From an uncultured Gammaproteobacteria bacterium (GTDB lineage Bacteria > Patescibacteriota > Microgenomatia > UBA12405 > JAHJSD01), in NCBI GenBank assembly GCA_964536585.1, contig CAZHXO010000001.1, positions 1 to 38,028 of the forward strand: a stretch of DNA of 38,028 nucleotides, written 5' to 3'. Both the position numbers and the translations under genes were made by a program. Shown here piece after piece: positions 488 to 38,028 of this stretch (its first letter is position 1; every line of letters begins with the position of its first letter). The notes below the pieces were generated by a model. It was not told the DNA's origin and did not search any database. It saw only the letters and a list, made by a program, of their open reading frames with translations.

Positions 488-1545
488 TGTCTTTCTTAAT
501 ATTTTTTATTGCCATATCAAGCATGATTCTTATCCACGAGCTGGGCCATTTTTTAATGGCCAAGTTACATGGCCTTAGAGTGGAGGAGTTTGGTTTGGGT
601 TACCCGCCCCGTTTAGTTGGCAAGAAGTTCAAAGAAACAATTTATTCCTTGAACTTGATTCCCATGGGCGGCTTTGTTCGTATTTGGGGAATGGAGAGTC
701 GGGTGGATGAAGACAAAAACAGGGCCTTTTATACCCAGTCCAAAAAAGTTCAATTTTTAATTTTAGCCGCCGGGGTGGTAATGAACTTTCTTTTGGCAAT
801 TGGCGTTTTTAGTGTTGTTTATGGTATTCAGGGCGTTCCGCAAGAAATTGGGGCAGTAAAGATTGTTCAAATTGCTTCTGATTCTCCGGCTGGTAAGTCT
901 GACTTAGAAATAGATACTAAGGTTGTAGCTATAAAAATAGGTGATCAAGAGTTTGAAACTAATAATATGCAGCAGTTTACAGAGATTATTAATCAGCATT
1001 TAGGCGAGGAAGTTATTTTAGTTTCCTTGGAAGGAGAAGAATATAAATTAACTCCTCGAGAAAATCCTCCGGAAGACCAAGGGGCATTGGGGGTAATTAT
1101 CACTGACAAGAAATTGGTAAAAATATCTTTAATCAAAAGGATTCCCCTTGGCATTTGGTATGGATTGAAAGAAGGAATTTTATGGGGCGTGGAAATTTTT
1201 CAAAGCATAATTGGCATATTCACAACCCTTTTTCAAGGTAAAGTACCTAAGCAAGTGACCGGTCCGATTGGTATTTACTCAGCTTCCCGGGAAATTTTTA
1301 AAGCTCAGGGCTTATTATCCTTAATCCATTTTTTTGCGGTTGTTTCGGTGAACTTAGCTATAGTTAATGTTATTCCTATCCCCGGAACAGACGGCTGGCA
1401 TGCGAGTATTTTGGGGTTTGAAACAATTCGGGGTAGAAAACTGACCGAAAAAACAAAGACGCGAATTAACCAACTGGCAATGATTTTTATTTTGCTTTTA
1501 TCGGTTTTGGTTATTGCCGCAGATATTAAGCGGTTTTTACTCTAG
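487..1545 (+). CDS. rseP: site-2 (M50) zinc metalloprotease with PDZ-like insert, RseP/RasP type
   Basis: HELGH zinc motif at the N-terminus, multiple TM segments, central PDZ-like stretch, C-terminal NLAIVNVIPIPGTDG motif. The GTG start overlaps the frr stop. Confidence 0.85.
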   Translation: MSFLIFFIAISSMILIHELGHFLMAKLHGLRVEEFGLGYPPRLVGKKFKETIYSLNLIPMGGFVRIWGMESRVDEDKNRAFYTQSKKVQFLILAAGVVMNFLLAIGVFSVVYGIQGVPQEIGAVKIVQIASDSPAGKSDLEIDTKVVAIKIGDQEFETNNMQQFTEIINQHLGEEVILVSLEGEEYKLTPRENPPEDQGALGVIITDKKLVKISLIKRIPLGIWYGLKEGILWGVEIFQSIIGIFTTLFQGKVPKQVTGPIGIYSASREIFKAQGLLSLIHFFAVVSVNLAIVNVIPIPGTDGWHASILGFETIRGRKLTEKTKTRINQLAMIFILLLSVLVIAADIKRFLL

Positions 1546-2919
1546 TCTTTCCCATTCTAATAAAACCGCAGAGTTGGGCTGAAGAATAATCTTTTTGGTA
1601 ATTTGTTTTGATTGAACTTCTTCTCGATTGGTTTGACTTGGTCCTTGGAAATATTGTTGACTGTACTGATAGGTGCCGGGTTGAATATTTTTAAGAGTAA
1701 TCGGGGTTGATTCATAGTGACGGTTTAAGGGATCATAGTTGACTACTAAAACCTGTATCTTATTTGCTTCTTGCGTGGCAATTGCTTTAACCCAACTGCC
1801 TTCTTTGGAAAGAGAAACCCTTTGGCCATTTAGTTGGTTTAGAAAACTGTAAGCATGATAGCGTGGTTTTTTGGACGATACCCCGTGATTTTTATGGGTC
1901 AAAAGCCCCCAACGCCCCCAGTATTTTTTAGGTCCTGGCCCGTCAATAATTTCAAAAGTAAATACTCGATGAACCTTGCCCATTAATTGGGTCATACAGG
2001 CCATAGAATGAATTGCGGATATTTTATTATCGTACCAAGCCGAATTTTCTGAGTGGGGTCCGAATTCTGTAATTAAACGTTCTAAGGTAAAGTATTTAGG
2101 GTAATTGGTTAAAATTGCATTAAGTTTTTCAAAATCTCGGTTATAACTTTCCAAGTTCTTAGCGTAACGGTGCCAAGAAATAAAATCAATTCTTAAATCA
2201 TTGTCCTGACAATAATTTAAGAGTGCTTTAATCCAGTTAGGGTAAAAGCCGGTAGTTGCTGGCCCACCAATTTTAAATGCGTTGACATTAGTTGCCTTTT
2301 GGGCGGCTTTAACTGTGTGATAGTAAAGAGTTAAATAATTAGGTTGTTTGCCATAATGCCAGTTGCCGAACAAATCCGGTTCGTTCCAAACTTCATAATA
2401 AAGATTGTCTAAATTATATCCATCTTTGCCGCTGTATCTGCTTACTGTTGCTTTAACCAAATTCTGCCATTCAAGCCAATTATTGGGAACAGAAACATTT
2501 TTACCATCTAGGGACAGGGAAGGTGGCATATAAGAAAAAACTAACATTGGTTTAGCACCGCTTTTTAGAATAGTCTTGACAATATCATCAAGTTGTGAAA
2601 AATCATATTTCGCTTGCCCGTCAGCCGACGGGTTAATTTTGACATGGTGGTCGAACAAATGGTCAATTCTGATTAACTGCGGATTAAGTTGAGTAGTTTC
2701 ACTAACTACTGGCTGAAGCATATTATTAGCTTCCTCGCCGCCCTGAGCGTAATTTTGCCACAGCCGCTTGGGAAGTGGACCACTGGTTTGGGCAAGGTCA
2801 ATTTCAATATTGGCTTTAGTACCAAAAGCAACTCGGCGAAGGTCTTGGTTTTGAAAAACTGCCCACAAAGTGATGGGGATGAGGAGAAGGATAGCTAGAA
2901 TAGTTGGTATTTTGCCCAT
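1537..2919 (-). CDS. membrane-anchored or secreted clan GH-A glycoside hydrolase (GH39-like)
   Basis: N-terminal hydrophobic anchor. YYEVWNEPDLFGNW (acid/base NEP motif) and LITEFGP (nucleophile Glu) are typical of GH39/GH5-type TIM-barrel hydrolases. The 3' end overlaps the rseP 3' end by 9 nt. Confidence 0.65.
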   Translation of the reverse strand: MGKIPTILAILLLIPITLWAVFQNQDLRRVAFGTKANIEIDLAQTSGPLPKRLWQNYAQGGEEANNMLQPVVSETTQLNPQLIRIDHLFDHHVKINPSADGQAKYDFSQLDDIVKTILKSGAKPMLVFSYMPPSLSLDGKNVSVPNNWLEWQNLVKATVSRYSGKDGYNLDNLYYEVWNEPDLFGNWHYGKQPNYLTLYYHTVKAAQKATNVNAFKIGGPATTGFYPNWIKALLNYCQDNDLRIDFISWHRYAKNLESYNRDFEKLNAILTNYPKYFTLERLITEFGPHSENSAWYDNKISAIHSMACMTQLMGKVHRVFTFEIIDGPGPKKYWGRWGLLTHKNHGVSSKKPRYHAYSFLNQLNGQRVSLSKEGSWVKAIATQEANKIQVLVVNYDPLNRHYESTPITLKNIQPGTYQYSQQYFQGPSQTNREEVQSKQITKKIILQPNSAVLLEWERLE

Positions 2920-2948: not shown

Positions 2949-2978
2949 TTGACAAATGGTTTTTAATAATGCTTTAAT
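2949..2978 (+). promoter_or_regulatory. candidate sigma70-type promoter for the surface-protein operon
   Basis: TTGACA at 2949-2954, 18-nt spacer, TTTAAT at 2973-2978, 27 nt upstream of the ATG at 3006. Confidence 0.4.
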
Positions 2979-3005: not shown

Positions 3006-5258
3006 ATGAAAAAGAAGAAACGACATTTACAACGCGGTGCCGTCCAAGCACCGCTTATTATTGGTTTATTGCTTATTGGTTTAGCCCTTCCGGCTGCACT
3101 TCAATTAGTCCAGCAAAGACAGGAAACCAGGAAAGCAGCAATAGATAATCAAGAAGAATGTGAAGCTGTGGGGCACACCTGGTGCGGTAGTGGTACTTGC
3201 CCTGATGGTTGGTCTTATGGTCCTGGCTGTTGGACGGGTGGGAGTTGTGAAGCTAGACACGAGGAAGCTTGTGCTGATCACCAAGGAGGCGGAGACGGTG
3301 ATACGGGCGGTACTGATTGTAGTGATGTTTATAATAGAGACCTAAGCGGATATTCTTGTGAGAATGGAGTGTTAGTTGATGCCAATGGGAATAGGGCGGA
3401 TAAACAGAAATGGTGTGGGACTGGATGCCCTTCTACAGTAGAAACAAACAGCGACTGTTGTGATGGACAGGATATATGCCAATGTGCTAGTGCGGAGATA
3501 GAACCGACTAGACCACCCCCAACAGCCACGCCAGTTCCTGATGATGTTGAATGTTATTGTTACGGAAGTTGTGACACAGCTAATTGTCAATGGAGTGAGG
3601 TGGATCCCTTTGGGAATATGGGAGCGCTTTGTGATGACAGCAAGTGTGAGGGTGAACCAACCGCAACTCCAATGCCGACAGAAAGTTATGTTCAATGTGA
3701 TGTTGCCCATGAAATATGCGTTTCATCAATCGGGGAATGCCAATCAGGCACAGTTGATTTTAACAGAAAGTGCGGCCAGGACAGCGGCGGATATAAATAT
3801 TGTTGTCAGCCAAAATCTGAGCCAACCGCGACTCCTACACCCGATTGCCGTCCAGACGGCTATAATTGTAGTATGCTGACCGCTGGTTCAACTCATTGTA
3901 GTTGGTGTTGTAATGGTTATCATTGGGCAGGAGCGTTGAGTGGTGGTTATATTTGTGGACCAGGGGAAGATGATACACCTGAATGTGGTTCCAATCAATG
4001 TTATTCAGGCCGCTATAGCACCTGCCGGGATAATTGTTTTACTGAAGGCAATCAGATTTGTTGTAATGGTGAGTGGAAGCTGGAATCAGAAGGCTGTGCC
4101 GCTTGTGAAGTAACTCCTACTCCCGGAATTGATACCTGTGGTTATGGCGGAGACCCAGATGCCGGGGTTTGTCGAGTAGGGGGTTGTGAAGCTGGGGAAA
4201 AAGCAGTAGATCCGACAGATTGTGCTGGGTATAATGAAGTGTGTTGTGTACCTGAAGTTGACTCTGATGTTGAATGTTATTGTTACGGAAGTTGTGACAC
4301 AGCTAATTGTCAATGGAGTGAGGTGGATCCCTTTGGGAATATGGGAGCGCTTTGTGATGACAGCAAGTGTGAGGGTGAACCAACCGCAACTCCAATGCCG
4401 ACAGAAAGTTATGTTCAATGTGATGTTGCCCATGAAATATGCGTTTCATCAATCGGGGAATGCCAATCAGGCACAGTTGATTTTAACAGAAAGTGCGGCC
4501 AGGACAGCGGCGGATATAAATATTGTTGTCAGCCAAAATCTGAGCCAACCGCGACTCCTCAACCAACCGCGACTCCTCAACCAACTGCGACCCCAACTGA
4601 GTCTGAAGGCGAGCCAGGACCGGGGCCAGGAGAACCGACAGCTACCCCGCCAGCAAATCCGACTGAGTCTCCTACTGAGCCGGGCGAGGAATGTCCTTAT
4701 GATTCTTTACAATCCCGGATTCAAGTCAACGCTCAAACTAATTGGCAAAAAGAACTGGATGTTGAAGTGGGCGATACCATCAATTTAGGCTGTATGCATG
4801 ATGGAAGTGGTAGTTTAGCCAGCAATGTAGTTTTGGTTGCTGACGGGCCAATTAAGAAAGAATGGAATAGAAATAATCAGGATAGTGGAACTGAAGGAAG
4901 AGTTACCGGGTGGGAGGTTCCCCAATCTGGTAGTTATCGTATTTATTGTTATTCAACCGATGATAACTGCAGTGGAATGAATTCCGGTGCTGACAGTTCA
5001 GTTTTGGATGCTGCACCCACTGGCTGTAAACCTTGTCCAGATGGTAGTTACGTAGCCTTGGGAGCCACCAGTTATAGTTGTCAGACTGATGGAACCTCTT
5101 TGGATGACTTTATTGGCTGGAAAGAACAATACATAAAGGTTTTTTATCACAACCAACAGATCCCAGCTAGTCAATTATATGCTGATTACGATTGTGACGG
5201 CACGATTGGTGTAAATGACATAATATTATGGAAAGAGAAATATTTAGAAACTCTTTGA
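3006..5258 (+). CDS. secreted cysteine-rich modular protein with Pro/Thr linkers, a duplicated module pair and a C-terminal dockerin-like segment
   Basis: N-terminal KKKKR plus hydrophobic signal/anchor. About 66 Cys in 750 aa by my count. Cys-rich modules of about 40 aa end in CC(Q/V)P and are separated by EPTATP linkers. The C-terminus TDGTSLDDFIGWKEQY...DYDCDGTIGVNDIILWKEKY looks like a two-segment dockerin. TGA stop. Confidence 0.8.
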   Translation: MKKKKRHLQRGAVQAPLIIGLLLIGLALPAALQLVQQRQETRKAAIDNQEECEAVGHTWCGSGTCPDGWSYGPGCWTGGSCEARHEEACADHQGGGDGDTGGTDCSDVYNRDLSGYSCENGVLVDANGNRADKQKWCGTGCPSTVETNSDCCDGQDICQCASAEIEPTRPPPTATPVPDDVECYCYGSCDTANCQWSEVDPFGNMGALCDDSKCEGEPTATPMPTESYVQCDVAHEICVSSIGECQSGTVDFNRKCGQDSGGYKYCCQPKSEPTATPTPDCRPDGYNCSMLTAGSTHCSWCCNGYHWAGALSGGYICGPGEDDTPECGSNQCYSGRYSTCRDNCFTEGNQICCNGEWKLESEGCAACEVTPTPGIDTCGYGGDPDAGVCRVGGCEAGEKAVDPTDCAGYNEVCCVPEVDSDVECYCYGSCDTANCQWSEVDPFGNMGALCDDSKCEGEPTATPMPTESYVQCDVAHEICVSSIGECQSGTVDFNRKCGQDSGGYKYCCQPKSEPTATPQPTATPQPTATPTESEGEPGPGPGEPTATPPANPTESPTEPGEECPYDSLQSRIQVNAQTNWQKELDVEVGDTINLGCMHDGSGSLASNVVLVADGPIKKEWNRNNQDSGTEGRVTGWEVPQSGSYRIYCYSTDDNCSGMNSGADSSVLDAAPTGCKPCPDGSYVALGATSYSCQTDGTSLDDFIGWKEQYIKVFYHNQQIPASQLYADYDCDGTIGVNDIILWKEKYLETL
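3542..3836 (+). repeat. copy 1 of a 295-bp perfect direct repeat inside the Cys-rich CDS
   Basis: Base-for-base identical by eye to 4265-4559. The 723-nt offset equals 241 codons, so it is in frame. Confidence 0.9.
4265..4559 (+). repeat. copy 2 of the 295-bp perfect direct repeat inside the Cys-rich CDS
   Basis: Identical to 3542-3836. Both encode DVECYCYGSCDTANCQW...GGYKYCCQPKSEPTATP. Confidence 0.9.
4545..4598 (+). repeat. 18-bp tandem repeat x3 (two perfect, one diverged) encoding the PTATPQ linker
   Basis: ccaaccgcgactcctcaa at 4545-4562 and 4563-4580, then ccaactgcgaccccaact at 4581-4598. Confidence 0.85.
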
Positions 5259-5285: not shown

Positions 5286-6425
5286 ATGAACGACCAAAGA
5301 AAGCAAGCATTAAGCTTAGTTGCAATTTTGATGGCTGCTGCTGGCTTATTAGCAGGAGGAATTTTATTGCAACGCCGAACCGAGCTCAGGCGAAAAGCAG
5401 TTTATAGTAATATTGATGTGAGCTTACATCCACAACCGTTGGAGGTCTGTAAAGGCGACCAAGCTAAACTTTTGGTTAAGGTTGACCCCAGCCCTGAAAA
5501 CGCAGCTGAAACAGCTGAGATACATGCGGCTGAAATAAGGTTGAATTTTGATAATGAAATAGCAGCAGTTAGTAAGGTAACTTTTCATGACGATTACGGG
5601 GCGAGTATTTGGAACGAAGATAAAGCAAACAATTCGGGTGTGCTAAAAATGGCGGCGTTAACAATGGCACAAAGTGTTCCTACAGAAGTTTTTGATTTGG
5701 TTGAAGTTGAATTTAGCGGAGAAAAAGAAGGAGAGTTTGAGCTTCGCTTGGATAGTGATTATGAAATCCGCGGAGTTCGCGGCCAAACAGATGCTGATGT
5801 TGATCGGGAGCTGGAAATAAATAATGTTGATCAAATTGTTACTCAGGTTAAAGTGGTTGATTGTGATGGAGAGGGAGAGGCTGATTGGCCTAAGATGACT
5901 TTTAAAATTCGATTTGTAGGAACAGAGTATGAAGCTAGTGGTAAAGAGATTGTGGTGAGTAATATTCCTGACCAGAAAGTAGATATAGTAATTAAAGGTC
6001 AAGGACAACGCAAGGTTTTTGAGAATGTTAATGTTTCTTTTGATGAGCAGGCAATCGGAACTGGTAGTTTAGAGTTGGTTGGAGTCACCCCGGGAAGTGG
6101 ATATACGATTTTAATTAAGGGGCCGGTTCATTTAGCTCGCCGCTTTTGTGAGGATGAACAGGTTGACCGCTGTTGGTTAGGCCAAGGTAATTTAACAATT
6201 ACCAGTGGTGAAAATGTTTTTGATTGGACTGCGCTAGCTCTTGAACCCGGAGATATTAATAGAGACGGAATAGTCGATGCGACTGATTATACAAAATTAA
6301 AAGCAGCCTTGGGGCAATCAGGTGAGGCTGTCCAAGAAGATCTTAACAGGAACGGAACCGTTACTGGTCAGGATGTAGTCTTTTTCCTAGAAACGCTGAG
6401 TAAGCGATACGAAGAAGAAATTTAG
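5286..6425 (+). CDS. membrane-anchored protein with a cohesin-like domain, an Ig-like middle domain and a C-terminal type-I-like dockerin
   Basis: N-terminal TM. The stretch IDVSLHPQPLEVCKGDQAKLLVKVD...AAEIRLNFDNEIAAVSKV...FDLVEVEFSGEKEGEFEL fits the cohesin pattern. The C-terminus GDINRDGIVDATDYTKLKAAL...EDLNRNGTVTGQDVVFFLETL is a duplicated Ca-binding dockerin motif. Confidence 0.65.
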   Translation: MNDQRKQALSLVAILMAAAGLLAGGILLQRRTELRRKAVYSNIDVSLHPQPLEVCKGDQAKLLVKVDPSPENAAETAEIHAAEIRLNFDNEIAAVSKVTFHDDYGASIWNEDKANNSGVLKMAALTMAQSVPTEVFDLVEVEFSGEKEGEFELRLDSDYEIRGVRGQTDADVDRELEINNVDQIVTQVKVVDCDGEGEADWPKMTFKIRFVGTEYEASGKEIVVSNIPDQKVDIVIKGQGQRKVFENVNVSFDEQAIGTGSLELVGVTPGSGYTILIKGPVHLARRFCEDEQVDRCWLGQGNLTITSGENVFDWTALALEPGDINRDGIVDATDYTKLKAALGQSGEAVQEDLNRNGTVTGQDVVFFLETLSKRYEEEI

Positions 6426-6482: not shown

Positions 6483-7070
6483 ATGGATTTAAAAAAATTA
6501 GACACTGCAAAATGGCTGGTCCCAGTTTTAGCATTTTTAGTCATTATAGAAAGTGTTTTCATTGTTCAAAAATTATCTCAGCAACAAATCGGAGACTGGG
6601 AAGAAGAAAACAAAAGTTTACCAGCTAGTTTACAACCCGGAAAGAAGCAGCAAACAGTTCTTGCCTTAAAAGGAGAAGATAATATTGAGGTCGAAAGTCA
6701 GGGACAGGTAAGGGTAGTTATGACCCCCTTTGAACAATTATCCTTGGATGGAGTTGATATTTTAATTGAGTATAACCCTGATTATATTGATATTTTAGGG
6801 ACAGACCCGTCTGACCGCTTTTCCCGGGTGGGCCGGAATTGGATTGAACCCCAAAAAAATCGGGTTGTAGTTACTTTGGTACAGCTGGATCAAGCCGTTA
6901 ATTTTGAGGCTGGTCAAGAAGTAACTCTACTAACTTTAAGCTACAAAGCTCTAAAAAAAGGGGAAACAACCTTAAAATTAAAGCAAGCTGAGGCCGGCGG
7001 GACAAATTTGGCTGGTTTGGGAAAGGAATATCCATTTCAAACTGAAGATTTGAGTTTAACAGTAAAATGA
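6483..7070 (+). CDS. membrane-anchored cohesin-like domain protein
   Basis: N-terminal TM. The stretch VRVVMTPFEQLSLDGVDILIEYNPDYIDILG...EVTLLTLSYKALKKGETTLKL fits the cohesin beta-sandwich pattern. Confidence 0.55.
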   Translation: MDLKKLDTAKWLVPVLAFLVIIESVFIVQKLSQQQIGDWEEENKSLPASLQPGKKQQTVLALKGEDNIEVESQGQVRVVMTPFEQLSLDGVDILIEYNPDYIDILGTDPSDRFSRVGRNWIEPQKNRVVVTLVQLDQAVNFEAGQEVTLLTLSYKALKKGETTLKLKQAEAGGTNLAGLGKEYPFQTEDLSLTVK

Positions 7071-7747
7071 AGAAAATATTAATTTTTCTGGGTTTGGTTA
7101 GTAGCTTTTTTATAATTTCAGTTGCTACTGCTTATGCTGCGCCGCGATTGTATTTTGCCCCGGCGAGCGGTGATCAAGCGGTTGGTGAAACCTTTCAAGT
7201 AATAGTTAAGGTGGATACTGGAGAACAAGAAGTCGCAGCTGCTGACGCGATAATAAGTTTTGACTCGACTAAGCTAAAAGTGAATCAAGTTAGCAAAGGA
7301 GATTTTTTCCCGGAATTTAGTTATGATCTTGAAAATTCAGAAGGCGAACTTTCAATATGGGGAATGGTAGAAACAACTTTGGAATTAGTTTCGGGTGAAG
7401 GTGATTTAGCAACGATAACTTTTGAAGCGGAAAGCAATGGGGAAGCAGCAGTTTCTTTTTTATGTGAAGAGGGTAATGACACTGATTCTGCTATCTGGGA
7501 CAGTTCAGGCAATGATTTGATTGATTGTGCCTCCAACGGCAGTGGTTCATATACAATTGGGGGGACAGGGGCGACTTCTTCTCCTACTTCCACTTCCACT
7601 TCCACTCCCACTCCCACAAGTACTGCTTCAGCAGAGGCTACTGCTACACCTAGTGAATTGCCGGAAACAGGAATAGAAACCCCGTTGATTATTATGGGCT
7701 TAGGAGGAGTAATTGTGTTATTATTATCAACAGTGATGGCGATTTAA
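7067..7747 (+). CDS. secreted cohesin-like domain protein with Ser/Thr/Pro linker and LPXTG-type cell-wall sorting signal
   Basis: Signal peptide ending AYA-AP. Cohesin pattern GETFQVIVKVDTGEQEVAAADAIISFDSTKLKVNQVSKGDFF...GDLATITFEAESNGEAAVSF. C-terminal LPETG followed by a hydrophobic tail. ATGA start/stop overlap with the previous ORF. Confidence 0.7.
   Translation: MKKILIFLGLVSSFFIISVATAYAAPRLYFAPASGDQAVGETFQVIVKVDTGEQEVAAADAIISFDSTKLKVNQVSKGDFFPEFSYDLENSEGELSIWGMVETTLELVSGEGDLATITFEAESNGEAAVSFLCEEGNDTDSAIWDSSGNDLIDCASNGSGSYTIGGTGATSSPTSTSTSTPTPTSTASAEATATPSELPETGIETPLIIMGLGGVIVLLLSTVMAI
7586..7615 (+). repeat. hexanucleotide tandem repeat (acttcc x3, actccc x2) encoding a TS/TP linker
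   Basis: Read directly from the sequence. In frame within CDS 7067-7747. Confidence 0.85.
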
Positions 7748-7748
7748 A

Positions 7749-8348
7749 ATGAAGGGGAATATAAAGAAGATAATTATTGTTGTTATCTTATTACTAACCG
7801 GAGTGTTGGCTGTTTTTGGTATTCGAGCGGCTAAGACCTATTTAAGTGGGGCAGCTGGGGGGGCAGAGCCTGAAAATGTGCAAGTTCAAGCGGAATCAAA
7901 ATCAGCGACTATTAGTTGGCAATCAGAAAAAGAGAGTCAAGCAACAGTAGAGTATGGGACAACACCAGCCAGTTTGCTACTTCGCGCTCCTGAACAACAA
8001 GCGGCTACAACTCACCGGGTTGATCTATCTCCTTTAAGGTCGGGAACAACTTATTATTTCCGGATTCGGGTTGGTGACAAAATTTTTGACAATGACGGAA
8101 TCCCCTTTTCCTTTAAAACAAAGGCGGAAGAAACTGAGGAGGCTTTGTCTCCAACACCAACTCAGCGGGCTTTGCCAACCAGTGCACAACCAACGACTAC
8201 AACCGCTACTGATAGTGCTAAAGTGACTCAATGTGTTAAATCAGAATTTAAGGAGAAGTTCGGGACAAGCAATTCCAGCTATGATTTGGATGATAATGGA
8301 GTAGTCAATACTCGTGATTGGATAATGTGTTTGAATGAAAACCAATAA
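7749..8348 (+). CDS. membrane-anchored FN3-like domain protein with a C-terminal single dockerin-like segment
   Basis: N-terminal TM. ATISWQSEKESQATVEYGTTP...THRVDLSPLRSGTTYYFRIRV is an FN3/PAP-N-like signature. The C-terminus is YDLDDNGVVNTRDWIMCL. Confidence 0.55.
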   Translation: MKGNIKKIIIVVILLLTGVLAVFGIRAAKTYLSGAAGGAEPENVQVQAESKSATISWQSEKESQATVEYGTTPASLLLRAPEQQAATTHRVDLSPLRSGTTYYFRIRVGDKIFDNDGIPFSFKTKAEETEEALSPTPTQRALPTSAQPTTTTATDSAKVTQCVKSEFKEKFGTSNSSYDLDDNGVVNTRDWIMCLNENQ

Positions 8349-9552: not shown

Positions 9553-11019
9553 ATGTATTTTTTAAAATATCGGCCGCAAACTGTTGAGGAACTGGATTTA
9601 GAAAATGTTCGTCAAAAACTGACTAAAATATTGAAGAGCGATCAAATCCCTCATGCTTTTCTGTTTGCGGGCCCCAAAGGTGCTGGCAAGACTTCTGCGG
9701 CTAGGATTTTAGCTAAAGCAATCAATTGCCGGGCAGAGAAAAAACCTAAAGGCTTTGAACCGTGTAATCAGTGTGAAATCTGCAAGGCAATTACACGGGG
9801 AACAAGTTTAGATGTGGTTGAAATTGACGCCGCATCTAATCGCGGTATCGATGACATACGGCAACTTAAAGAAAAAATTGCTTTAGCTCCGGTTAGTGCT
9901 GACTATAAAGTTTATATTATTGATGAGGTGCATATGCTTACTAAACCTGCTTTTAATGCTTTGCTGAAAACGCTAGAGGAGCCTCCGTCGCACGTTGTTT
10001 TTGTTTTATGCACTACTAATCCTGAAAAAATTATCCCCACTGTTTTATCAAGACTATTAAGAATTGATTTTAGTCGGGGCACCAGACAGGAGGTTAGACG
10101 AAGTTTGCAAAAAGTAATTAAAGGAGAAAATTTAAAGGTGGAAAAAAAAGTAATTGAGACGATTATTGATTTGGCTGATGGCGGTTTTCGCGATGCCCAG
10201 AAGATGCTTGAAAGTTTGGTTTTAAGTTTAGGTAAAGAAATTAGCTGGGATAAAGCCCAACCTGAGCTTATTCATTGGCAAAAGCAGAAACCGAGCAAAG
10301 TGCTTCAGCTTCTGGCTGATGGTGAACAAGAAGAGCTCCTGCGAGTTGGGGAACAGTTGCAGGCAGACGGAGCTGAAATGAACGACTATTTGCAGCGGCT
10401 GCTGAATTTAGTGCAAAAACTGATTTTAGTGAGAACAGAGGTTGACAAGGGGCAAGCTGAAGAACGTCGGTTAGCTGAACAATTTAGTTTATCGCAATTG
10501 AGTCGTTTGTCAAAGATTTTAATCCAAGCAATGTATGAACAAAAGAATGCTGTTTTGCCCCAACTGCCGCTGCAATTGGCGGTAATAGAGTTTTTAAAGG
10601 GTAAAAAAAAAGGAATGACTAAGGGGAATAAAGCCCAAAAAAAGGAAAAGGTGGGAGAGGGGACAAAGAAAGCCGGGAAAAGGGTTGGTTTGAATTTGGA
10701 TACAGTGAAAAATAAATGGCGGGATTTATTGGAAGCAGTTAAGCCAATGAACCATTCGGTAGCCGCTTTTTTAAGGGCGGCAAAACCTAAAAAATTTAAA
10801 AACAATCAATTAGTACTTGAGGTTTTTTATCGATTTCATAAAGATAAGTTGGAAGAAAATCGGAATCGTCGGATTGTTGAGACTGGGTTAAAGAAAATTT
10901 GTCATTCAGATGTTAAAATAAAGTGTGTTTTGGCAAAGAAAAAGAAGACGAAGAAAAAAAATAAAAAGATAAAAGAGGACATTTCAAAGGTAGCAGAGGA
11001 GATATTTGGGGGGAGGTGA
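9553..11019 (+). CDS. dnaX: DNA polymerase III subunit gamma/tau
   Basis: Walker A GPKGAGKTS, Zn module CNQCEICKAI, DEVHML, SRLL sensor motif. TGA stop. Confidence 0.9.
   Translation: MYFLKYRPQTVEELDLENVRQKLTKILKSDQIPHAFLFAGPKGAGKTSAARILAKAINCRAEKKPKGFEPCNQCEICKAITRGTSLDVVEIDAASNRGIDDIRQLKEKIALAPVSADYKVYIIDEVHMLTKPAFNALLKTLEEPPSHVVFVLCTTNPEKIIPTVLSRLLRIDFSRGTRQEVRRSLQKVIKGENLKVEKKVIETIIDLADGGFRDAQKMLESLVLSLGKEISWDKAQPELIHWQKQKPSKVLQLLADGEQEELLRVGEQLQADGAEMNDYLQRLLNLVQKLILVRTEVDKGQAEERRLAEQFSLSQLSRLSKILIQAMYEQKNAVLPQLPLQLAVIEFLKGKKKGMTKGNKAQKKEKVGEGTKKAGKRVGLNLDTVKNKWRDLLEAVKPMNHSVAAFLRAAKPKKFKNNQLVLEVFYRFHKDKLEENRNRRIVETGLKKICHSDVKIKCVLAKKKKTKKKNKKIKEDISKVAEEIFGGR
10603..10611 (+). promoter_or_regulatory. 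A9 homopolymer in dnaX: candidate slippage or frameshift site producing a short gamma form
   Basis: AAA AAA AAA GGA ATG ACT AAG in frame 0. With one extra A the reading is AGG AAT GAC TAA. With one fewer A it is AAG GAA TGA. So both alternative frames stop within 2-4 codons. Confidence 0.45.
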
Positions 11020-18137: not shown

Positions 18138-18171
18138 CAAATTTAACTCAGCGATCGCCGAACTAAATTTT
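18138..18171. repeat. 34-bp CGATCG-centred imperfect palindrome, family A copy 1
   Basis: caaatttaactcag-CGATCG-ccgaactaaatttt, identical to 18874-18907. It overlaps the stop codon of CDS 18163-18840 and follows the prfA stop by 3 nt. A T-run follows on the + strand. Confidence 0.9.
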
Positions 18172-18840
18172 TAATTTTTTCTGGGCGAAAAGCTTGAAAA
18201 TTGTTTTTAATGGCCAGGTTGACGGGAGTAAATCTAAAGGAACTTTTGGATGTTGGGAAACTAAATCCCAGAATTGAAGTTGTAATTCTTCAGATAGTTT
18301 CCTTTCTTTTTTAAGTTTTTGCTTCCAGCTATTTGCTTTATTTTTCCATTGATGAACTTCCCATTTTTCCTCGATAATTTTCCGGGGATCACAACGTAAT
18401 ATTTTACCCTCAATAACACCTAGGTAATTAGTATCATCAATTTGTTTATCCAGTTGTCTAATTTTGTCAGTTAAGGGAAGAGGGGAGAACCAAACCGAGC
18501 GTTGAAAGAATTTAAAATCCCATTCTTTTAGTCGCCGTCGAATTAAATCCCGGGCAGTTTTATTTTTTTGCGGGATATCGAAAACCACGAATCGCCATTT
18601 TTTATCCCAAGGCTTTTTTATTAATTTCAAAATTGACTCAGGTTTTTGTTTAAAGGTTAAATCGGGATTCAAAACACCCTTTTTAATGAAATAGTTTTTT
18701 GTGCTTCTTACTCCTGCGCACAACCAATCGTCAAGGGTTGGTATTTTTCTTGTATCGGTATGAAAGTAATCGTAAAACAAAATCATTAAGTCTTCAGCAG
18801 TTCTAAGGGTTTGAAGTAATTTTGACTTTCTTTTTTGCAC
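18163..18840 (-). CDS. PaaX-like protein with Cas2-like central domain (paralog 1)
   Basis: KKWRFVVFDIPQKNKTARDLIRRRLKEWDFKFFQRSVWFSPLP is the PaaX-middle/Cas2-like motif. It is homologous along its length to CDS 29744-30409. The ORF is open to a TTG at 18876, but alignment with the paralog and the promoter layout favour the GTG at 18838-18840. Confidence 0.7.
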   Translation of the reverse strand: MQKRKSKLLQTLRTAEDLMILFYDYFHTDTRKIPTLDDWLCAGVRSTKNYFIKKGVLNPDLTFKQKPESILKLIKKPWDKKWRFVVFDIPQKNKTARDLIRRRLKEWDFKFFQRSVWFSPLPLTDKIRQLDKQIDDTNYLGVIEGKILRCDPRKIIEEKWEVHQWKNKANSWKQKLKKERKLSEELQLQFWDLVSQHPKVPLDLLPSTWPLKTIFKLFAQKKLKI

Positions 18841-18846
18841 ACTTAA

Positions 18847-18876
18847 TTTATACCCCTTTTTAAGAGTGAAAGTCAA
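18847..18876 (-). promoter_or_regulatory. promoter of PaaX-like paralog 1, abutting the upstream palindrome
   Basis: On the minus strand: TTGACT (18876-18871), 18-nt spacer, TATAAA (18852-18847), 6 nt, GTG. The -35 box overlaps the end of repeat A2 by 3 nt. Confidence 0.5.
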
Positions 18877-27830: not shown

Positions 27831-27965
27831 GGAAGAGGGGAGAGGTAGTTATCCTATAACAGTAATCCCATAATATTTATAATTATTATCCTATAATATT
27901 AAATCCCAATTGTGAAAATTATAGGACTATTTTCATGTTTAGCAGCTAATTATTTAAAGTGCTAG

Positions 27966-27988
27966 AAGCACCTATCTAAGTGCTTTTT
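27966..27988 (+). terminator. candidate intrinsic terminator with a competing upstream hairpin
   Basis: aagcac-ctatctaa-gtgctt followed by TTT. GTGCT at 27959-27963 can pair with AGCAC at 27967-27971 instead. Confidence 0.35.
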
Positions 27989-28271
27989 GGGCATAGACAG
28001 GAAAAAGTAGCAGTTAATTTGTGGAAAACTATTATCGTTTGGGGAAGGGGTGTTTTAGATTCTTTTACCAAGATAGCACAGGAAGAAAGTAACTCTAAAC
28101 TTTTTTGAATATCCTGCAAATAAAATAAATAAACTTTAAAAAGCTTACTTCTTCAAAAACCATCTGTTTAATAAAAGGATATTTCATAGAGAGCAAAATT
28201 ATTATATGTCGTACAATGTTTCTTTTGCGACGCGCTAATTATTGTGAAGGCGAGGAGGGTGTAAAATTCAC

Positions 28272-28295
28272 AATTTTCAAATTTTCAAATTTTCC
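28272..28295. repeat. 8-bp tandem repeat aattttca x3 (last copy aattttcc)
   Basis: Read directly. Phased A/T tracts. Confidence 0.8.
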
Positions 28296-28684
28296 AAAAT
28301 AAAAAATTAAACTCCTATTTTATTTGAACATTGAACTTTTAAACATTGATGTTTTTAGTTACTTTTATCTTAATTAAGCTTTATACTTAAAGCTTTTATC
28401 AGTCCTCTATTTTAAAAAATTATCTTAGAGAAACATTAAATCTTATTTGTGGCCGTTAGCAAAAGGGTAATTGTATAGACATGCTTGCAAAAACCGCTTA
28501 GAATGGCTCTCATAACTTTACCCCTAATAACAGGCAGAAACTCAATTATAGTCTTTCAAAATGGTTAATTTTTATTATTTTTTAGAAATTTAATTCTCTG
28601 TTTATAAAAAATTCTAAAAAATTTTAATAAAATTTTACTTTCTCATTTATTTACTTTTTATTTTTTTAATAACGTCGCACAATC

Positions 28685-28713
28685 TTGACGTTTTCTAGAC
28701 AATCTGTTATTCT
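28685..28713 (+). promoter_or_regulatory. candidate promoter of the recombinase gene
   Basis: TTGACG at 28685-28690, 17-nt spacer, TATTCT at 28708-28713, 10 nt to the ATG at 28724 with no SD sequence. Confidence 0.4.
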
Positions 28714-28723
28714 TCAATTAACA

Positions 28724-29674
28724 ATGGCAAAGAAAAAAAATCTCTGGGCTTTAATTAATGAATATTTGGAAAGTTTAGAAATTGAGCGCAACCTCTCCCC
28801 GCTTACTATTCGCAACTATCGTCATTATTTAAAACGGTTTTACCAGTTTTTAAAAAATAAACAAACTAAAGAAGGGGTCTCCCCTACTCTATCTGAGGTT
28901 AACAAAGAAAATATCCGTAAATATAGGAGATATTTGGCAAGATTAAAGACTAGGAAAGACACTTTTCTCAAGAAAAAAACCCAGGGGTATCATATTATTG
29001 CTCTTCGGTCATTTCTACGTTGGTTAGTAAAGAATGATTACCAGGTTTTGGCTCCGGAGAAAATTGAATTACCAAAAACTGGCGACCGAGAAGTAAAGTT
29101 CTTAACAATGAAACAATTAAACAAATTTTTAAACCAACCAACAGCTTCTAATATTATTGGCTTACGAGATAAAGCAATGTTGGAAACTTTGTATTCTACC
29201 GGTTTACGAGTAAGTGAGTTGGTTTCTTTGGATCGGGATCAAATTAATCTTAAAACAAAAGAGGTTGGCGTAGTCGGGAAAGGAAGTAAAACCAGAGTGG
29301 TTTTTTTATCTGATCGAGCGGCAAAATGGTTGGATCGCTATCTGGCTGCTCGAGACGATCATTATAAACCCTTATTTATCCGCTATTCAGGAAAAAAGGA
29401 TCCAACTATGTCTGATGAAGACCTGCGCTTGTCAGCACGATCAGTTCAGAGAGCAGTAGAAAAGTATCGCAAAAAAGCTAAGATTCCGATTAAAGTTACC
29501 CCCCATGTTTTACGCCATACTTTTGCGACTGATCTTTTAAGGCAAGGAGCAGATTTGCGCTCTGTTCAAGAATTATTAGGTCATGAGAACATTTCCACTA
29601 CTCAGATTTACACCCACGTAACTGATAGGAGATTGCAAGAAACACATGAAAAATATCATTCCGGCAATAAATAG
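28724..29674 (+). CDS. tyrosine site-specific recombinase, XerC/XerD-like
   Basis: N-terminal SAM-like domain LSPLTIRNYRHYLKRFYQFL. Catalytic domain GLRVSELVSLD, VVGKGSKTRVVFL, HVLRHTFATDLL, LLGHENISTTQIYTHV (R-K-H-R-H-Y set). The ATG at 28724 is preferred over the TTG at 28685, which reads as the -35 box. Confidence 0.85.
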   Translation: MAKKKNLWALINEYLESLEIERNLSPLTIRNYRHYLKRFYQFLKNKQTKEGVSPTLSEVNKENIRKYRRYLARLKTRKDTFLKKKTQGYHIIALRSFLRWLVKNDYQVLAPEKIELPKTGDREVKFLTMKQLNKFLNQPTASNIIGLRDKAMLETLYSTGLRVSELVSLDRDQINLKTKEVGVVGKGSKTRVVFLSDRAAKWLDRYLAARDDHYKPLFIRYSGKKDPTMSDEDLRLSARSVQRAVEKYRKKAKIPIKVTPHVLRHTFATDLLRQGADLRSVQELLGHENISTTQIYTHVTDRRLQETHEKYHSGNK

Positions 29675-29717: not shown

Positions 29718-29751
29718 TCAACTATCCTTTACGATCGTAGGGTTTATTTGA
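29718..29751. repeat. 34-bp CGATCG-centred imperfect palindrome, family B copy 1
   Basis: tcaactatccttta-CGATCG-tagggtttatttga. 28/34 identical to 30444-30477. It overlaps the stop codon of CDS 29744-30409. Confidence 0.85.
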
Positions 29752-30409
29752 AGGGTGCATTTAATTTTGTAAATTGTTTAATTACCTTTTTTAGGGGCCA
29801 GTCTGGAGGTAAAAGTTCTAGTGGGATTTTAGGGTGGTTTAAAACTAAACCCCAAAATTTTTGGTTGTATTCATCCCTTTGTAGTTTGTTTTGGTTATTT
29901 AATAACGATTGAGCCTTTTCATTCCAGGATTCTATTTCCCATAAAGATTTAACGATTTTCTTTGATTCTTTAGGAGGTAGCTTACTGGTAAAAAGATAGA
30001 ATGCTTTATAGTCACTAACTTTTTGTTTTATTTGTTTGATCTTTTTATCAGTCGGTAAAGGGCTTATCCAAGCAGAACGTTGTAGGTTTTTGAATCCAAA
30101 TCGTTTTAAAGACTTTCTTAGTTTATCGCGTGTTAGGCGATTTTTTTCAGGAATGTCAAATAAAACTAGCCGCCATTTTTTATCCCATTTATTCAGGAGT
30201 TTAAATAAGTTAAATGATTTTTCCTTTAATTCAAGATTTTCTGTTATTAGTCCTTGCTCAATTGAATACCATTTGCTTTTTTGTAATTTTATTTTTGGGA
30301 AACCGATACTTTGAGTTATCCATAATGGATCTCGGAAGTAGCTGTCAAAGAGTATTAAAAAATCCTCGGCAACTCTTAATATTTCAACTAACCGATTTCT
30401 TCTAGGCAT
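29744..30409 (-). CDS. PaaX-like protein with Cas2-like central domain (paralog 2)
   Basis: KKWRLVLFDIPEKNRLTRDKLRKSLKRFGFKNLQRSAWISPLP. C-terminal FWGLVLNHPKIPLELLPPDWPLKK matches FWDLVSQHPKVPLDLLPSTWPLKT in paralog 1. Confidence 0.75.
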   Translation of the reverse strand: MPRRNRLVEILRVAEDFLILFDSYFRDPLWITQSIGFPKIKLQKSKWYSIEQGLITENLELKEKSFNLFKLLNKWDKKWRLVLFDIPEKNRLTRDKLRKSLKRFGFKNLQRSAWISPLPTDKKIKQIKQKVSDYKAFYLFTSKLPPKESKKIVKSLWEIESWNEKAQSLLNNQNKLQRDEYNQKFWGLVLNHPKIPLELLPPDWPLKKVIKQFTKLNAPFK

Positions 30410-35718: not shown

Positions 35719-35907
35719 TTAATCGAGTTTTTCTATTGCCTCGACAGGGCAACCATTGATCGCTCTGTCAAGCTTATCACTCCCCTTTTTAGGTTGCTTG
35801 ATAACTTGGGCCTTGTTTGTTTTTGGATCAAGCTGAAAGATTTCTGGAGCAATGGTTGTGCATAATCCGCAGCTGATGCATTTACTTTGATCTATCCTAA
35901 TTTTCAT
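35719..35907 (-). CDS. small ferredoxin (single [4Fe-4S]/[3Fe-4S]-type cluster)
   Basis: 62 aa. CISCGLC...CP motif (KCISCGLCTTIAPEIF...GCPVEAIE). Confidence 0.8.
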   Translation of the reverse strand: MKIRIDQSKCISCGLCTTIAPEIFQLDPKTNKAQVIKQPKKGSDKLDRAINGCPVEAIEKLD

Positions 35908-37518: not shown

Positions 37519-38028
37519 TTATTCATTTTGGCTGGTTAAATCATACAGAAGTTTATTTAAATTAACTGCGGCGACACCGACTACCTTATCTCCTCCGCCG
37601 TAATAAACATAAATATCTCCATTCAAAATTACTGCTCCGCAGGGATAAACAACATTGTTAACTTCACCTTCCAGTTCATACTTTAATCTCGGCTCGAGTA
37701 GAGGTTCATTTGACCGGGCAATAACTTGTCTTGGGTCATTTTTTTTAAGAAGCATTGCCCCCACCCGATAATGTTTATCTGCTTCAGAAATTGCGTGATA
37801 TAAAAGTAGCCAGCCGACATCGGTTTTAAACGGGGGAGCGGCAATGCCAATTTTGCGACTGTCCCAACTATCTGTTCGGGGTTTAAACCAGGCACTACCT
37901 TTAACCCATTTTTTATCTTTAAAATCAAGATTATCAACAAAATCAATCCAAATACACGGGTAAATACGGTGAAAAATAGCATATTTACCGTCTTTCATAT
38001 TGGGGACAATACAGGAGTTTTTATCGTC
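37519..38028 (-). CDS. GH130-like (DUF377) glycoside phosphorylase/hydrolase, C-terminal part (5' end beyond window)
   Basis: The frame stays open past the Met at 37998 to the window edge (DDKNSCIVPNMKDGKYAIFHR). WDSRKIGIAAPP, GWLLLYH, YRVGAMLL and VVYPCGAVILNGDIYVYYGGGDKVVGVA fit the five-bladed GH130 pattern. Confidence 0.7.
   Translation of the reverse strand, partial: DDKNSCIVPNMKDGKYAIFHRIYPCIWIDFVDNLDFKDKKWVKGSAWFKPRTDSWDSRKIGIAAPPFKTDVGWLLLYHAISEADKHYRVGAMLLKKNDPRQVIARSNEPLLEPRLKYELEGEVNNVVYPCGAVILNGDIYVYYGGGDKVVGVAAVNLNKLLYDLTSQNE

Follow-up and report, generated by a model that had tools for sequence, protein, structure and literature searches.

A hypervariable cysteine-rich mosaic protein in a cohesin-dockerin locus of a Patescibacteria bacterium: a candidate surface-displayed binding array

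A large part of bacterial diversity belongs to the Patescibacteria, or Candidate Phyla Radiation (CPR), whose members are believed to live in attachment to other cells. Almost nothing is known of the molecules by which they attach. Among the described systems relevant here, cellulosomes and cellulases typically combine a cohesin-dockerin organisation with Pro/Thr linkers. In the CPR, large secreted Cys-rich proteins are described from Peribacteria (PMC4736985), and a "secreted cysteine-rich protein" from Roizmanbacteria (PMC6509639); the Cys-rich extracellular proteins of CPR bacteria have been proposed to mediate attachment (PMC4736985). The present analysis concerns one gene of a 38,028-nucleotide stretch of DNA (the window; contig CAZHXO010000001.1 of assembly GCA_964536585.1), which encodes a Cys-rich protein of 750 amino acids (aa) and lies directly upstream of cohesin genes. 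The gene is real and unusual, belongs to an undescribed family, and forms part of a locus that is a concrete, conserved candidate for an attachment system. With confidence that is evenly balanced, we read its product as an exported, disulfide-stabilised, hypervariable binding or adhesion array of a very small, probably symbiotic Patescibacteria bacterium, displayed via cohesin-dockerin interaction. The general kind is already known, both as cohesin-dockerin-displayed surface proteins and as CPR Cys-rich exoproteins. Literature searches found no description of the module families, of the Cys-containing dockerin variant or of a conserved locus with a variable cargo slot. Nor did they return an account of a cohesin-dockerin locus in Patescibacteria, of trans-defensins in bacteria or of the disulfide machinery of CPR organisms.

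The protein contains exactly 66 Cys (8.8%), whereas in the 34 other window open reading frames (ORFs) of 120 aa or more, Cys accounts for 55 of 10,245 residues (0.54%); the approximately 16-fold enrichment is therefore not a matter of compositional chance. Module borders were set by splitting the protein at its Pro/Thr-rich linkers, and the resulting units contain, from the N- to the C-terminus, 6, 8, 6, 6, 6, 8, 6, 6, 6, 4 and 4 Cys. The even number in each unit fits all-disulfide domains, with 33 disulfides in total. Overall, the protein is a mosaic of nine Cys modules with at least six different frameworks on Pro/Thr linkers, ahead of an Ig-like domain and a probable divergent dockerin, and the mature form is very acidic (net charge -78). 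A preliminary description, made from the sequence alone, had counted about 66 Cys (about 9%), quoted two example modules (aa 231-269, which recurs at aa 472-510, and aa 378-416) and noted EPTATP-type linkers between the modules, all of which are confirmed here. Its further statement that the protein is built of CC(Q/V)P modules stands for three of the nine, since the CC-x-P ending occurs only in the two copies of module C and in module F (hereafter the CC-P type), while the rest are a mosaic of other Cys frameworks.

The same description had matched the modules to no named bacterial domain, and profile searches agree. In Pfam, no family was found for the whole protein, the sole match being a chance-level one to FlgE_D3 (E 0.18), and none of ten separately submitted segments gave a match even at E <= 10; in NCBIfam, neither the window protein nor three homologues gave a match (E <= 0.1). 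At these thresholds CBM1, CBM10, CBM14, CBM18 and the Myxococcus cysteine-rich repeat matched neither the whole protein nor its modules. The modules are thus unfamiliar as regards family membership, but not entirely so as regards framework, since the CC-P type has the Cys framework of beta-defensins and a weak, consistent similarity to trans-defensins, which is considered below. The knottin framework C-C-CC-C-C is absent from the window modules and present in relatives P0001, P0008 and P0056. Knottin, alpha-defensin and carbohydrate-binding module (CBM) identities were rejected for the window modules, with differing frameworks, hhalign probabilities <1% and no Pfam matches.

Relatives were collected by an exhaustive HMMER search with the whole protein against 1.84 billion representatives, which gave 108 proteins at E <= 1e-3, 47 at E <= 1e-10 and 6 at E <= 1e-30. 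The query regions matched are the N-terminal signal with the first Cys domain, the domain at aa 560-650, and the tail. The Cys-rich relatives are themselves mosaics, in which a signal of the form ...GLLLIGLALPAA..LVQQRQETR... is followed by Pro/Thr linkers, assorted mini-domains and a GCKPCPDG... tail. Within this set of relatives, a local profile hidden Markov model (HMM) finds 38 copies of the CC-P module in 20 proteins; the type B pattern has 20 copies in 12 family proteins, the type D pattern 12 copies in 9, and a knottin-like C6C5CC3C9C type 4 copies in 3 relatives, with none in the window protein. Several mini-domain families that are in no database are thereby defined. Counting the window protein itself, 51 members of the set contain at least 5% Cys.

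The ends of the protein are more constant than its interior. The N-terminal motif LVQQRQETRKAA is conserved in relatives P0002-P0005 and P0008, and the first 6-Cys domain is about 50% identical in P0002, P0013, P0017, P0020, P0021 and P0033. This domain (CEAxGHTWCGSGxCPDGWSYGPGCWxGGxC) also occurs in P0038, is much better conserved than the other modules, and spans proteins of otherwise unrelated architecture, including a low-Cys protein of 1,056 aa. Across related loci, only the N-terminus and tail of the Cys-rich protein can be aligned, and each genome has a different set of modules in it; the orthologues flanking it are 40-81% identical to those of the window (58-81% for the GH39 glycoside hydrolase). 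Conserved ends combined with shuffled modules fit the recognition of a variable ligand, for example the surface of a host or partner cell, in agreement with the attachment role put forward for other CPR Cys-rich proteins (PMC4736985).

Module turnover is also visible within the gene itself. Residues 180-277 are repeated exactly at aa 421-518, a 98-aa duplicate of a two-module cassette (B + C), and the underlying 300-nucleotide (nt) repeat arms differ only at positions 296-297. The cassette duplication is very recent. Near-identical tandem modules are likewise found in P0005, P0023 and P0056, which together with the cassette indicates ongoing module duplication. Of the remaining modules, module F is 81% identical to one module of P0001.

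The C-terminal part was modelled with AlphaFold2 (aa 556-750, alignment A2 of 32 homologous C-terminal sequences). The model, with a mean predicted local distance difference test score (pLDDT) of 93.9, shows a beta-sandwich of eight strands together with a short hairpin at CKPCPDG and a pair of helices. Its Foldseek matches in the Protein Data Bank (PDB), at E 2e-4 and probability 1.0, are Ig V-type domains (shark VNAR) and PKD domains. The Ig-like domain, for which no Pfam family was found, appears to be a widespread undescribed domain. Many low-Cys proteins from other bacteria (P0007, P0009-P0011, P0016, P0018, P0019, P0022, P0030) carry this "C-P-Y-S-S-L-Q-A-R-V-Q-P-N" domain 3-6 times in tandem, in some cases joined with a region resembling an HExxH zinc metalloprotease (P0016) or with other large regions that lack annotation (P0010, P0022).

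Because the Ig-like domain dominates the Foldseek result, the tail was judged by a profile search, in which an alignment of 11 tails (A3) was compared with all PDB sequences. The best matches are dockerins, namely Ruminococcus flavefaciens 5lxv_B (8.9e-4) and Clostridium thermocellum CelS (1daq and 2mte, ~2.5e-3), and about 18 of the 31 matches are dockerin chains, aligned at the YADYNCDGxVDxxDxxLW loop-helix (YADYDCDGTIGVNDIILW in the window protein). The first tail segment, CQTDGTSLDDFIGW, is degenerate in the window protein and canonical in P0003 and P0005 (DYNCDGVIGIEDF ... DFSCDGTVGLEDF), and relative P0002 has a Pfam-recognised PF00404 dockerin at the tail position. On this sequence evidence the tail is probably a divergent dockerin.

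Related loci were taken from a scan with the tail alignment, restricted to one genome per species, which yielded ten loci; gene order was established by tblastn and ORF maps. The order M50, GH39(-), cargo, CohDoc, orf195, Coh-LPETG, fn3, YqeY, DnaX, CysRS, SSB, in which the window's Cys-rich protein is the cargo and CohDoc and Coh-LPETG are the adaptor-like and anchoring cohesin proteins, is kept in L004, L006, L009, L010, L011 and L012 and partly in L005 (L006 being identical to L001 in their overlap). In L001, which carries P0001, the order is M50 / GH39(-) / Cys-rich protein. CohDoc matches Pfam Dockerin_1 at 4e-7, which passes the cut-off, and Cohesin at 0.014, which misses it. For Coh-LPETG the Cohesin match is clear (3.8e-13), the LPETG motif is read in the translation, and a weak match to an NCBIfam LPXTG-protein model was obtained. 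The cargo slot of the related loci holds one to four proteins with a QETR signal and a Cys-dockerin tail. The same tail is also found on low-Cys cohesin proteins in this slot (434 aa in L006, 441 aa in L009, and further examples in L007 and L008), and so behaves as a portable docking module in a variable slot. P0004 (L005 6436-9561, 1,041 aa) contains Cys-rich modules, an Ig-like domain and a dockerin, with a cohesin after the tail; cargo and scaffold functions can thus be fused.

These findings bear on the remaining statements of the preliminary description. The Ig-like region is borne out by the confident beta-sandwich model and its Foldseek matches, and the dockerin-like tail finds support in a tail profile whose best PDB-sequence matches are mostly dockerins. 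Secretion, which had also been proposed, agrees by sequence with the N-terminal signal or anchor. The cohesin-dockerin context is substantiated by the gene's position and by the retention of the locus in seven related genomes, and the protein is indeed the largest dockerin-bearing product of the window's locus. In contrast, the view that a Cys-rich extracellular array would be unusual in such a bacterium is overstated, as such proteins have been published for CPR and about 50 relatives contain at least 5% Cys.

All exported proteins of the locus share an N-terminal pattern made up of a hydrophobic helix and then L-V/L-Q-Q/E-R/T-Q-E-T/V/L-R-R/K-x-A-A. It reads LVQQRQETRKAA in the cargo (3006-3140), LLQRRTELRRKA in CohDoc (5286-5400) and FQNQDLRRVAFG in GH39 (2800-2919, minus strand), and is also seen in L004-L012; the N-termini of CohDoc and GH39 resemble that of the cargo in having a hydrophobic stretch and then Q..(E/D)LRR.A. 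The pattern resembles a sorting or processing signal specific to the lineage, and it matched no NCBIfam model. A type IV pilin-like signal at the N-terminus was rejected, the G-F-T-L-I-E-type motif and the Glu at +5 being absent.

The CC-P module deserves separate consideration. In an alignment of 34 instances (A1), six Cys are invariant in every one, with the framework C-x(3-12)-C-x(3-7)-C-x(8-17)-C-x(4-11)-CC. This is the six-Cys framework of beta-defensins (vertebrate reference C-x(4-8)-C-x(3-5)-C-x(9-13)-C-x(4-7)-CC), with somewhat wider loops in CC-P. Module C scores 33.3 bits against the A1 profile. When this profile was compared with 177,635 PDB sequences, human beta-defensin 1 ranked first, at a non-significant E of 0.23, with a full-length alignment that includes all six Cys and a common "SSGG-x-C". 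Over the 34 members, Defensin_beta (PF00711) was the only Pfam family matched more than once (3 of 34, best E 0.05); two of these modules align with nearly the whole profile at 14.1 and 10.4 bits, below the cut-off of 21, and the window's own modules gave no Defensin_beta match in Pfam. AlphaFold2 on A1, with module F as the target, predicted a four-stranded all-beta structure (pLDDT 81.7). Foldseek against the PDB returned 15 matches for this model, all of them peptides of the trans-defensin fold, among them the sea-anemone toxins CgNa and ShI, coral SCRiP1, human beta-defensin 2 (hBD-2) and human alpha-defensins, with query-normalised template modelling (TM) scores of 0.43-0.58 and E values of 2.5-9.3, none of which is significant. 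The Foldseek viral library gave chance-level matches only.

A comparison of A1 by hhalign with eight beta-defensin sequences (A4) gave a probability of 58% (P 9.8e-5, score 19.0). When the loop columns were permuted with the Cys framework kept, the mean score was 11.4 (standard deviation 3.4), and 2 of 100 permutations reached the real value. Probabilities remained <1% when types B and D were compared with beta-defensins and A1 with alpha-defensins, while the positive control, alpha- against beta-defensins, gave 26% and a score of 17.8, below that of A1 against beta-defensins. Collectively, these sequence comparisons point to a defensin signal that is consistent, specific to the CC-P type and somewhat beyond the Cys framework alone. 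As regards charge, the mean net value of the CC-P modules is -0.7, and only 9 of 34 are positive, whereas the eight comparison beta-defensins range from +3 to +6; rather than small cationic secreted peptides, the CC-P modules are neutral or acidic internal repeats of a 750-aa protein. Near-neutral to acidic modules within an acidic protein speak for a role in binding or as a scaffold and against an antimicrobial function. CC-P probably adopts a beta-defensin-like (trans-defensin) three-disulfide beta fold, which would here provide a stable scaffold for binding and not a cationic peptide that acts on membranes.

A bolder version of this proposal, which we regard as possible but doubtful, is that CC-P is a genuine bacterial trans-defensin with C1-C5, C2-C4 and C3-C6 disulfides, used as a repeated non-cationic binding domain in Patescibacteria surface proteins displayed through cohesin-dockerin, and that the locus as a whole is a lineage-specific hypervariable "adhesosome" for partner recognition by episymbionts. 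Trans-defensins are not known from outside animals (reportedly so in Shafee et al. 2016), and the fold has been regarded as an animal invention. Defensins described from bacteria to date belong to the cis (CS-alpha-beta) type (PMC11561630). If true, the proposal would give the first trans-defensin-type domain outside animals and would reopen the choice between a bacterial origin and convergence of the fold; a confirmed bacterial beta-defensin fold would bear on the long-running debate about defensin origin.

As for mechanism, the Cys-rich protein would leave the cell by Sec export and fold oxidatively outside the cytoplasm, with about 33 cystines. Its dockerin would then bind the cohesin of the adaptor, the adaptor's own dockerin would bind the cohesin of the LPETG protein, and the LPETG motif would link the assembly to the cell wall. 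In such an arrangement the mini-domains would be held off the cell surface on flexible linkers and could act as a multivalent adhesin-like binding array, whose ligand would likely lie on the envelope of a host or partner cell or be a polysaccharide. The array would diversify fast by duplication, loss and shuffling of modules, while the N-terminal signal and docking tail stay fixed. With so many disulfides outside the cytoplasm, the question also arises of how a presumably anaerobic bacterium with a small genome would form them.

Several observations weigh against this interpretation. Nothing in the sequence points to what the modules bind. The N-terminus has its own hydrophobic anchor, possibly uncleaved, so the protein may be membrane-tethered instead of, or besides, being docked to a cohesin. 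The dockerin assignment relies on a borderline E (~1e-3) and one loop-helix, and the window tail does not reach Dockerin_1 (PF00404), with no Pfam match even at E <= 10. Family scans of the window found no gene of the Dsb, VKOR or thioredoxin type. Each line of the beta-defensin comparison is non-significant when taken alone (Foldseek E 2.5-9, HMM E 0.23, Pfam below the cut-off), and AlphaFold2 may merely reproduce a fold that it has learned for that Cys spacing. Finally, an exact duplication could in principle be an assembly artefact, although the tandem modules of P0005, P0023 and P0056 indicate that duplications do occur in the family and count against this.

Of the alternatives, the best survivor, which we nevertheless rate as rather unlikely, is that the protein is the carbohydrate-targeting part of a cellulosome-like glycan-degrading complex and that its mini-domains are novel small CBM-like modules, which would hold the cell or GH39 on a plant or algal glycan or on a host cell-wall glycan. 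The conserved, divergently oriented GH39 neighbour keeps a polysaccharide target in play. A cohesin-dockerin layout with Pro/Thr linkers as in cellulosomes and cellulases, an average of 2.5 aromatic residues per module and a GH130 fragment at the window end point in the same direction. However, Pfam scans relaxed to E <= 10 gave no CBM match for the modules, the GH39 protein is without a recognisable dockerin, and the modules are hypervariable where GH39 is well kept (58-81%), which is unexpected for the binding of an invariant polysaccharide.

It is improbable that the protein is a protective or structural coat, or a protease-inhibitor array, of stable cystine-stapled domains that would shield the cell surface or act against host or environmental proteases. 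Multi-headed protease inhibitors are usually built of small disulfide-rich domains in tandem, as in multi-domain Kazal and WAP proteins and in the tick carboxypeptidase inhibitor with its two beta-defensin-like domains. Although one module matches WAP weakly (E 0.15) and another Lustrin_cystein (E 0.0056), these isolated matches fall below threshold and disagree with each other; none of the inhibitor families is matched significantly, and hypervariable modules fit recognition better than a generic coat.

We consider it quite improbable that the protein is a polyprotein precursor, from which proteolysis of the linkers would free defensin-like antimicrobial or toxin peptides directed against host or competitor cells. 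The modules are mostly neutral or acidic (9 of 34 positive, against +3 to +6 in beta-defensins), even though the Cys framework and predicted fold of the CC-P type are like those of beta-defensins and of sea-anemone toxins, and relatives also have knottin-like C6C5CC3C9C modules. S41 and HtrA proteases are encoded in the window, but these are common housekeeping types, and the module flanks are typical structural Pro/Thr linkers with no dibasic or other processing sites. Furthermore, the C-terminal Ig-like domain and dockerin suggest a protein that is displayed intact.

Metallothioneins contain about 30% Cys and few aromatic residues, have no fixed fold without metal and are usually cytoplasmic, whereas the present protein is exported, aromatic-rich and beta-structured by prediction, with 8.8% Cys. 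An extracellular metal-binding or redox protein with free cysteines, metallothionein-like or a thiol buffer, which the preliminary description had allowed for, is the least probable reading: the high Cys content with CxxC, CC and CxC motifs, a probably anoxic habitat (inferred from the CPR affiliation, with a ferredoxin ORF at 35719-35907 in keeping) and the lack of a Dsb or VKOR gene in the window are outweighed by the even Cys number per module, spacing that is invariant across divergent copies, a Cys content (~9%) far under that of metallothioneins, modules rich in aromatics and Gly with beta structure predicted at good confidence, and frameworks that match known disulfide folds.

The features of the proposed binding array and of its locus are collected in the table. 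The putative promoter falls within the 86 nt that separate the divergent GH39 and Cys-rich genes; it was not listed by a consensus scanner, owing to that program's rule for position 2 of the -10 hexamer. The fn3 protein, of the fn3 / purple-acid-phosphatase-N type, has a Cys after its half-dockerin YDLDDNGVVNTRDW, and this half-dockerin is kept in six related loci. A specific role for the adjacent M50 protease was rejected, as in L001 it belongs to the housekeeping cluster rpsB-tsf-frr-M50. By title, the ten loci come from entries named Patescibacteria group bacterium (L005, L012), from uncultured Gammaproteobacteria metagenome-assembled genomes (MAGs) of the third-party annotation (TPA) kind, and from one Oscillospiraceae dockerin protein. 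The "uncultured Gammaproteobacteria" TPA MAGs (among L004, L006-L011) share the locus and its flanks with Patescibacteria MAGs, and this label is probably wrong. L004, the closest related genome, has N runs at about 9880-9980 and 7443-7550, which break its Cys-rich gene and two neighbours, so that the orthologue of the window protein is unreadable in full there; L011 has one at about 3300-3400.

The window is otherwise ordinary bacterial chromosome, with genes for M50, DnaX, CysRS, SSB, CtpA-like and HtrA-like proteases, a release factor and HisRS, and further for DnaB, a XerC-like recombinase, GyrA, GyrB, a Trp/Tyr-family class I tRNA synthetase and one tRNA-Leu. Two paralogues with the PaaX central, Cas2-like domain (PF20803) lie on the minus strand at 18163-18876 and 29744-30409, the second adjoining the XerC-type tyrosine recombinase gene (28685-29674). 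Just upstream of this recombinase gene, about 850 nt (27831-28684) contain no ORF >47 aa and no Rfam match at the gathering score. The ferredoxin ORF mentioned above (minus strand) encodes 62 aa with a 4Fe-4S ferredoxin-like Cys motif, and the GH130 fragment (37519-37998, minus strand) is the C-terminal part of a mannoside phosphorylase at the window edge; both fit an anaerobic, sugar-scavenging lifestyle.

Table. Features of the Cys-rich gene and its neighbours, in window coordinates
Feature	Position	Strand	Remarks
GH39-family glycoside hydrolase with N-terminal anchor, divergent	1537..2919	-	Pfam PF01229, E 1.8e-33; syntenic in L001, L004, L005, L006, L012
Candidate sigma-70-type promoter	2949..2978	+	TTGACA-18 nt-TTTAAT; consensus resemblance only, read from sequence
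Cys-rich gene	3006..5258	+	750 aa and stop codon, 66 Cys; homologues down to E 3e-66
N-terminal export signal or signal-anchor, aa 1-45	3006..3140	+	MKKKKRHLQRG, hydrophobic stretch, then LVQQRQETRKAA
N-terminal 6-Cys domain, aa 50-92	3153..3281	+	CEAVGHTWCGSGTCPDGWSYGPGCWTGGSCEARHEEAC; no Pfam match
8-Cys module, aa 103-162	3312..3491	+	Counterparts in P0017, P0038
Direct repeat arm 1 (B + C cassette with linkers)	3542..3841	+	Repeat family D1, 300 nt, spacing 723
Module type B copy 1, aa 183-214, 6 Cys	3552..3647	+	CYCYGSCDTANCQWSEVDPFGNMGALCDDSKC
CC-P module type C copy 1, aa 231-269, 6 Cys, CCQP end	3696..3812	+	C-x6-C-x6-C-x10-C-x9-CC, beta-defensin-like framework
Module type D, aa 281-319, 6 Cys	3846..3962	+	Framework C..C..C-xx-CC..C-G-P
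8-Cys module type E, aa 327-367	3984..4106	+	Linker splitting of translation
CC-P module type F, aa 378-416, 6 Cys, CCVP end	4137..4253	+	C-x10-C-x4-C-x11-C-x6-CC; module used for model
Direct repeat arm 2	4265..4564	+	Repeat family D1
Module type B copy 2, aa 424-455	4275..4370	+	Identical to copy 1
CC-P module type C copy 2, aa 472-510	4419..4535	+	Identical to copy 1
Pro/Thr/Glu linker, 54 aa, aa 509-562	4530..4691	+	PTATPQ repeats (repeat family D2)
Ig-like beta-sandwich, aa 563-670, 4 Cys, "CPYxSLQxRxQ" type	4692..5015	+	AlphaFold2 and Foldseek
Probable divergent Cys-containing dockerin tail, aa 671-750, 4 Cys	5016..5255	+	GCKPCPDG knuckle, degenerate first loop-helix, canonical-looking second YADYDCDGTIGVNDIILW
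Adaptor-like CohDoc: signal-anchor, cohesin-like domain, C-terminal type I dockerin	5286..6425	+	Kept in seven related loci
orf195, 195-aa membrane-anchored protein	6483..7070	+	No family match; kept in six loci
Anchoring Coh-LPETG: signal peptide, cohesin, Ser/Thr/Pro linker, LPETG, hydrophobic tail	7067..7747	+	Kept in six loci
fn3-type protein with single terminal dockerin-like loop (YDLDDNGVVNTRDW)	7749..8348	+	Pfam PF16656 and fn3; kept in six loci

Compared with known systems, the locus is closest in layout to the cellulosome-type assemblies of Clostridia and Ruminococcus, with which it shares a cohesin anchor of the sortase-LPETG type, an adaptor with cohesin and dockerin, dockerin-tailed cargo, Pro/Thr linkers and a glycoside hydrolase adjoining the locus. 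It differs in that the cargo is a non-enzymatic array of Cys-rich mini-domains and the host a small-genome Patescibacteria bacterium, and docking is here predicted from sequence. The tail departs from cellulosomal dockerins in its CKPCPDG knuckle, degenerate first repeat, Cys within the loops and sub-Pfam score. The small CBMs (CBM1, CBM10, CBM14/peritrophin-A and CBM18/hevein) resemble the modules in their length of 30-45 aa, their 4-8 Cys, their aromatic residues and their Pro/Thr/Ser linkers, and are often in tandem, but there is no sequence match and the Cys frameworks are other ones.

With the trans-defensin fold (PF00711, sea-anemone type 1 Na-channel toxins, coral SCRiPs and alpha-defensins), the CC-P module has in common the six-Cys framework, a length of about 34-40 aa and a predicted all-beta structure; many copies also have "GG-x-C" before C2 and a Gly before C4. 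Beta-defensins are, however, small secreted cationic peptides with a pro-piece, unlike CC-P, which is acidic or neutral, has longer loops and is repeated within a 750-aa bacterial surface protein; no similarity score is significant. The published Cys-rich proteins of CPR bacteria (PMC4736985, PMC6509639), which were described in bulk and are compared here by description only, are likewise exported, contain about 7% Cys, are without functional annotation, vary at the strain level and have been proposed to serve attachment. They average about 1,650 aa and show weak similarity to the Myxococcus Cys-rich repeat, and the window family is set apart from them by its signal motif, Pro/Thr linkers, defined mini-domains, dockerin tail and cohesin locus.

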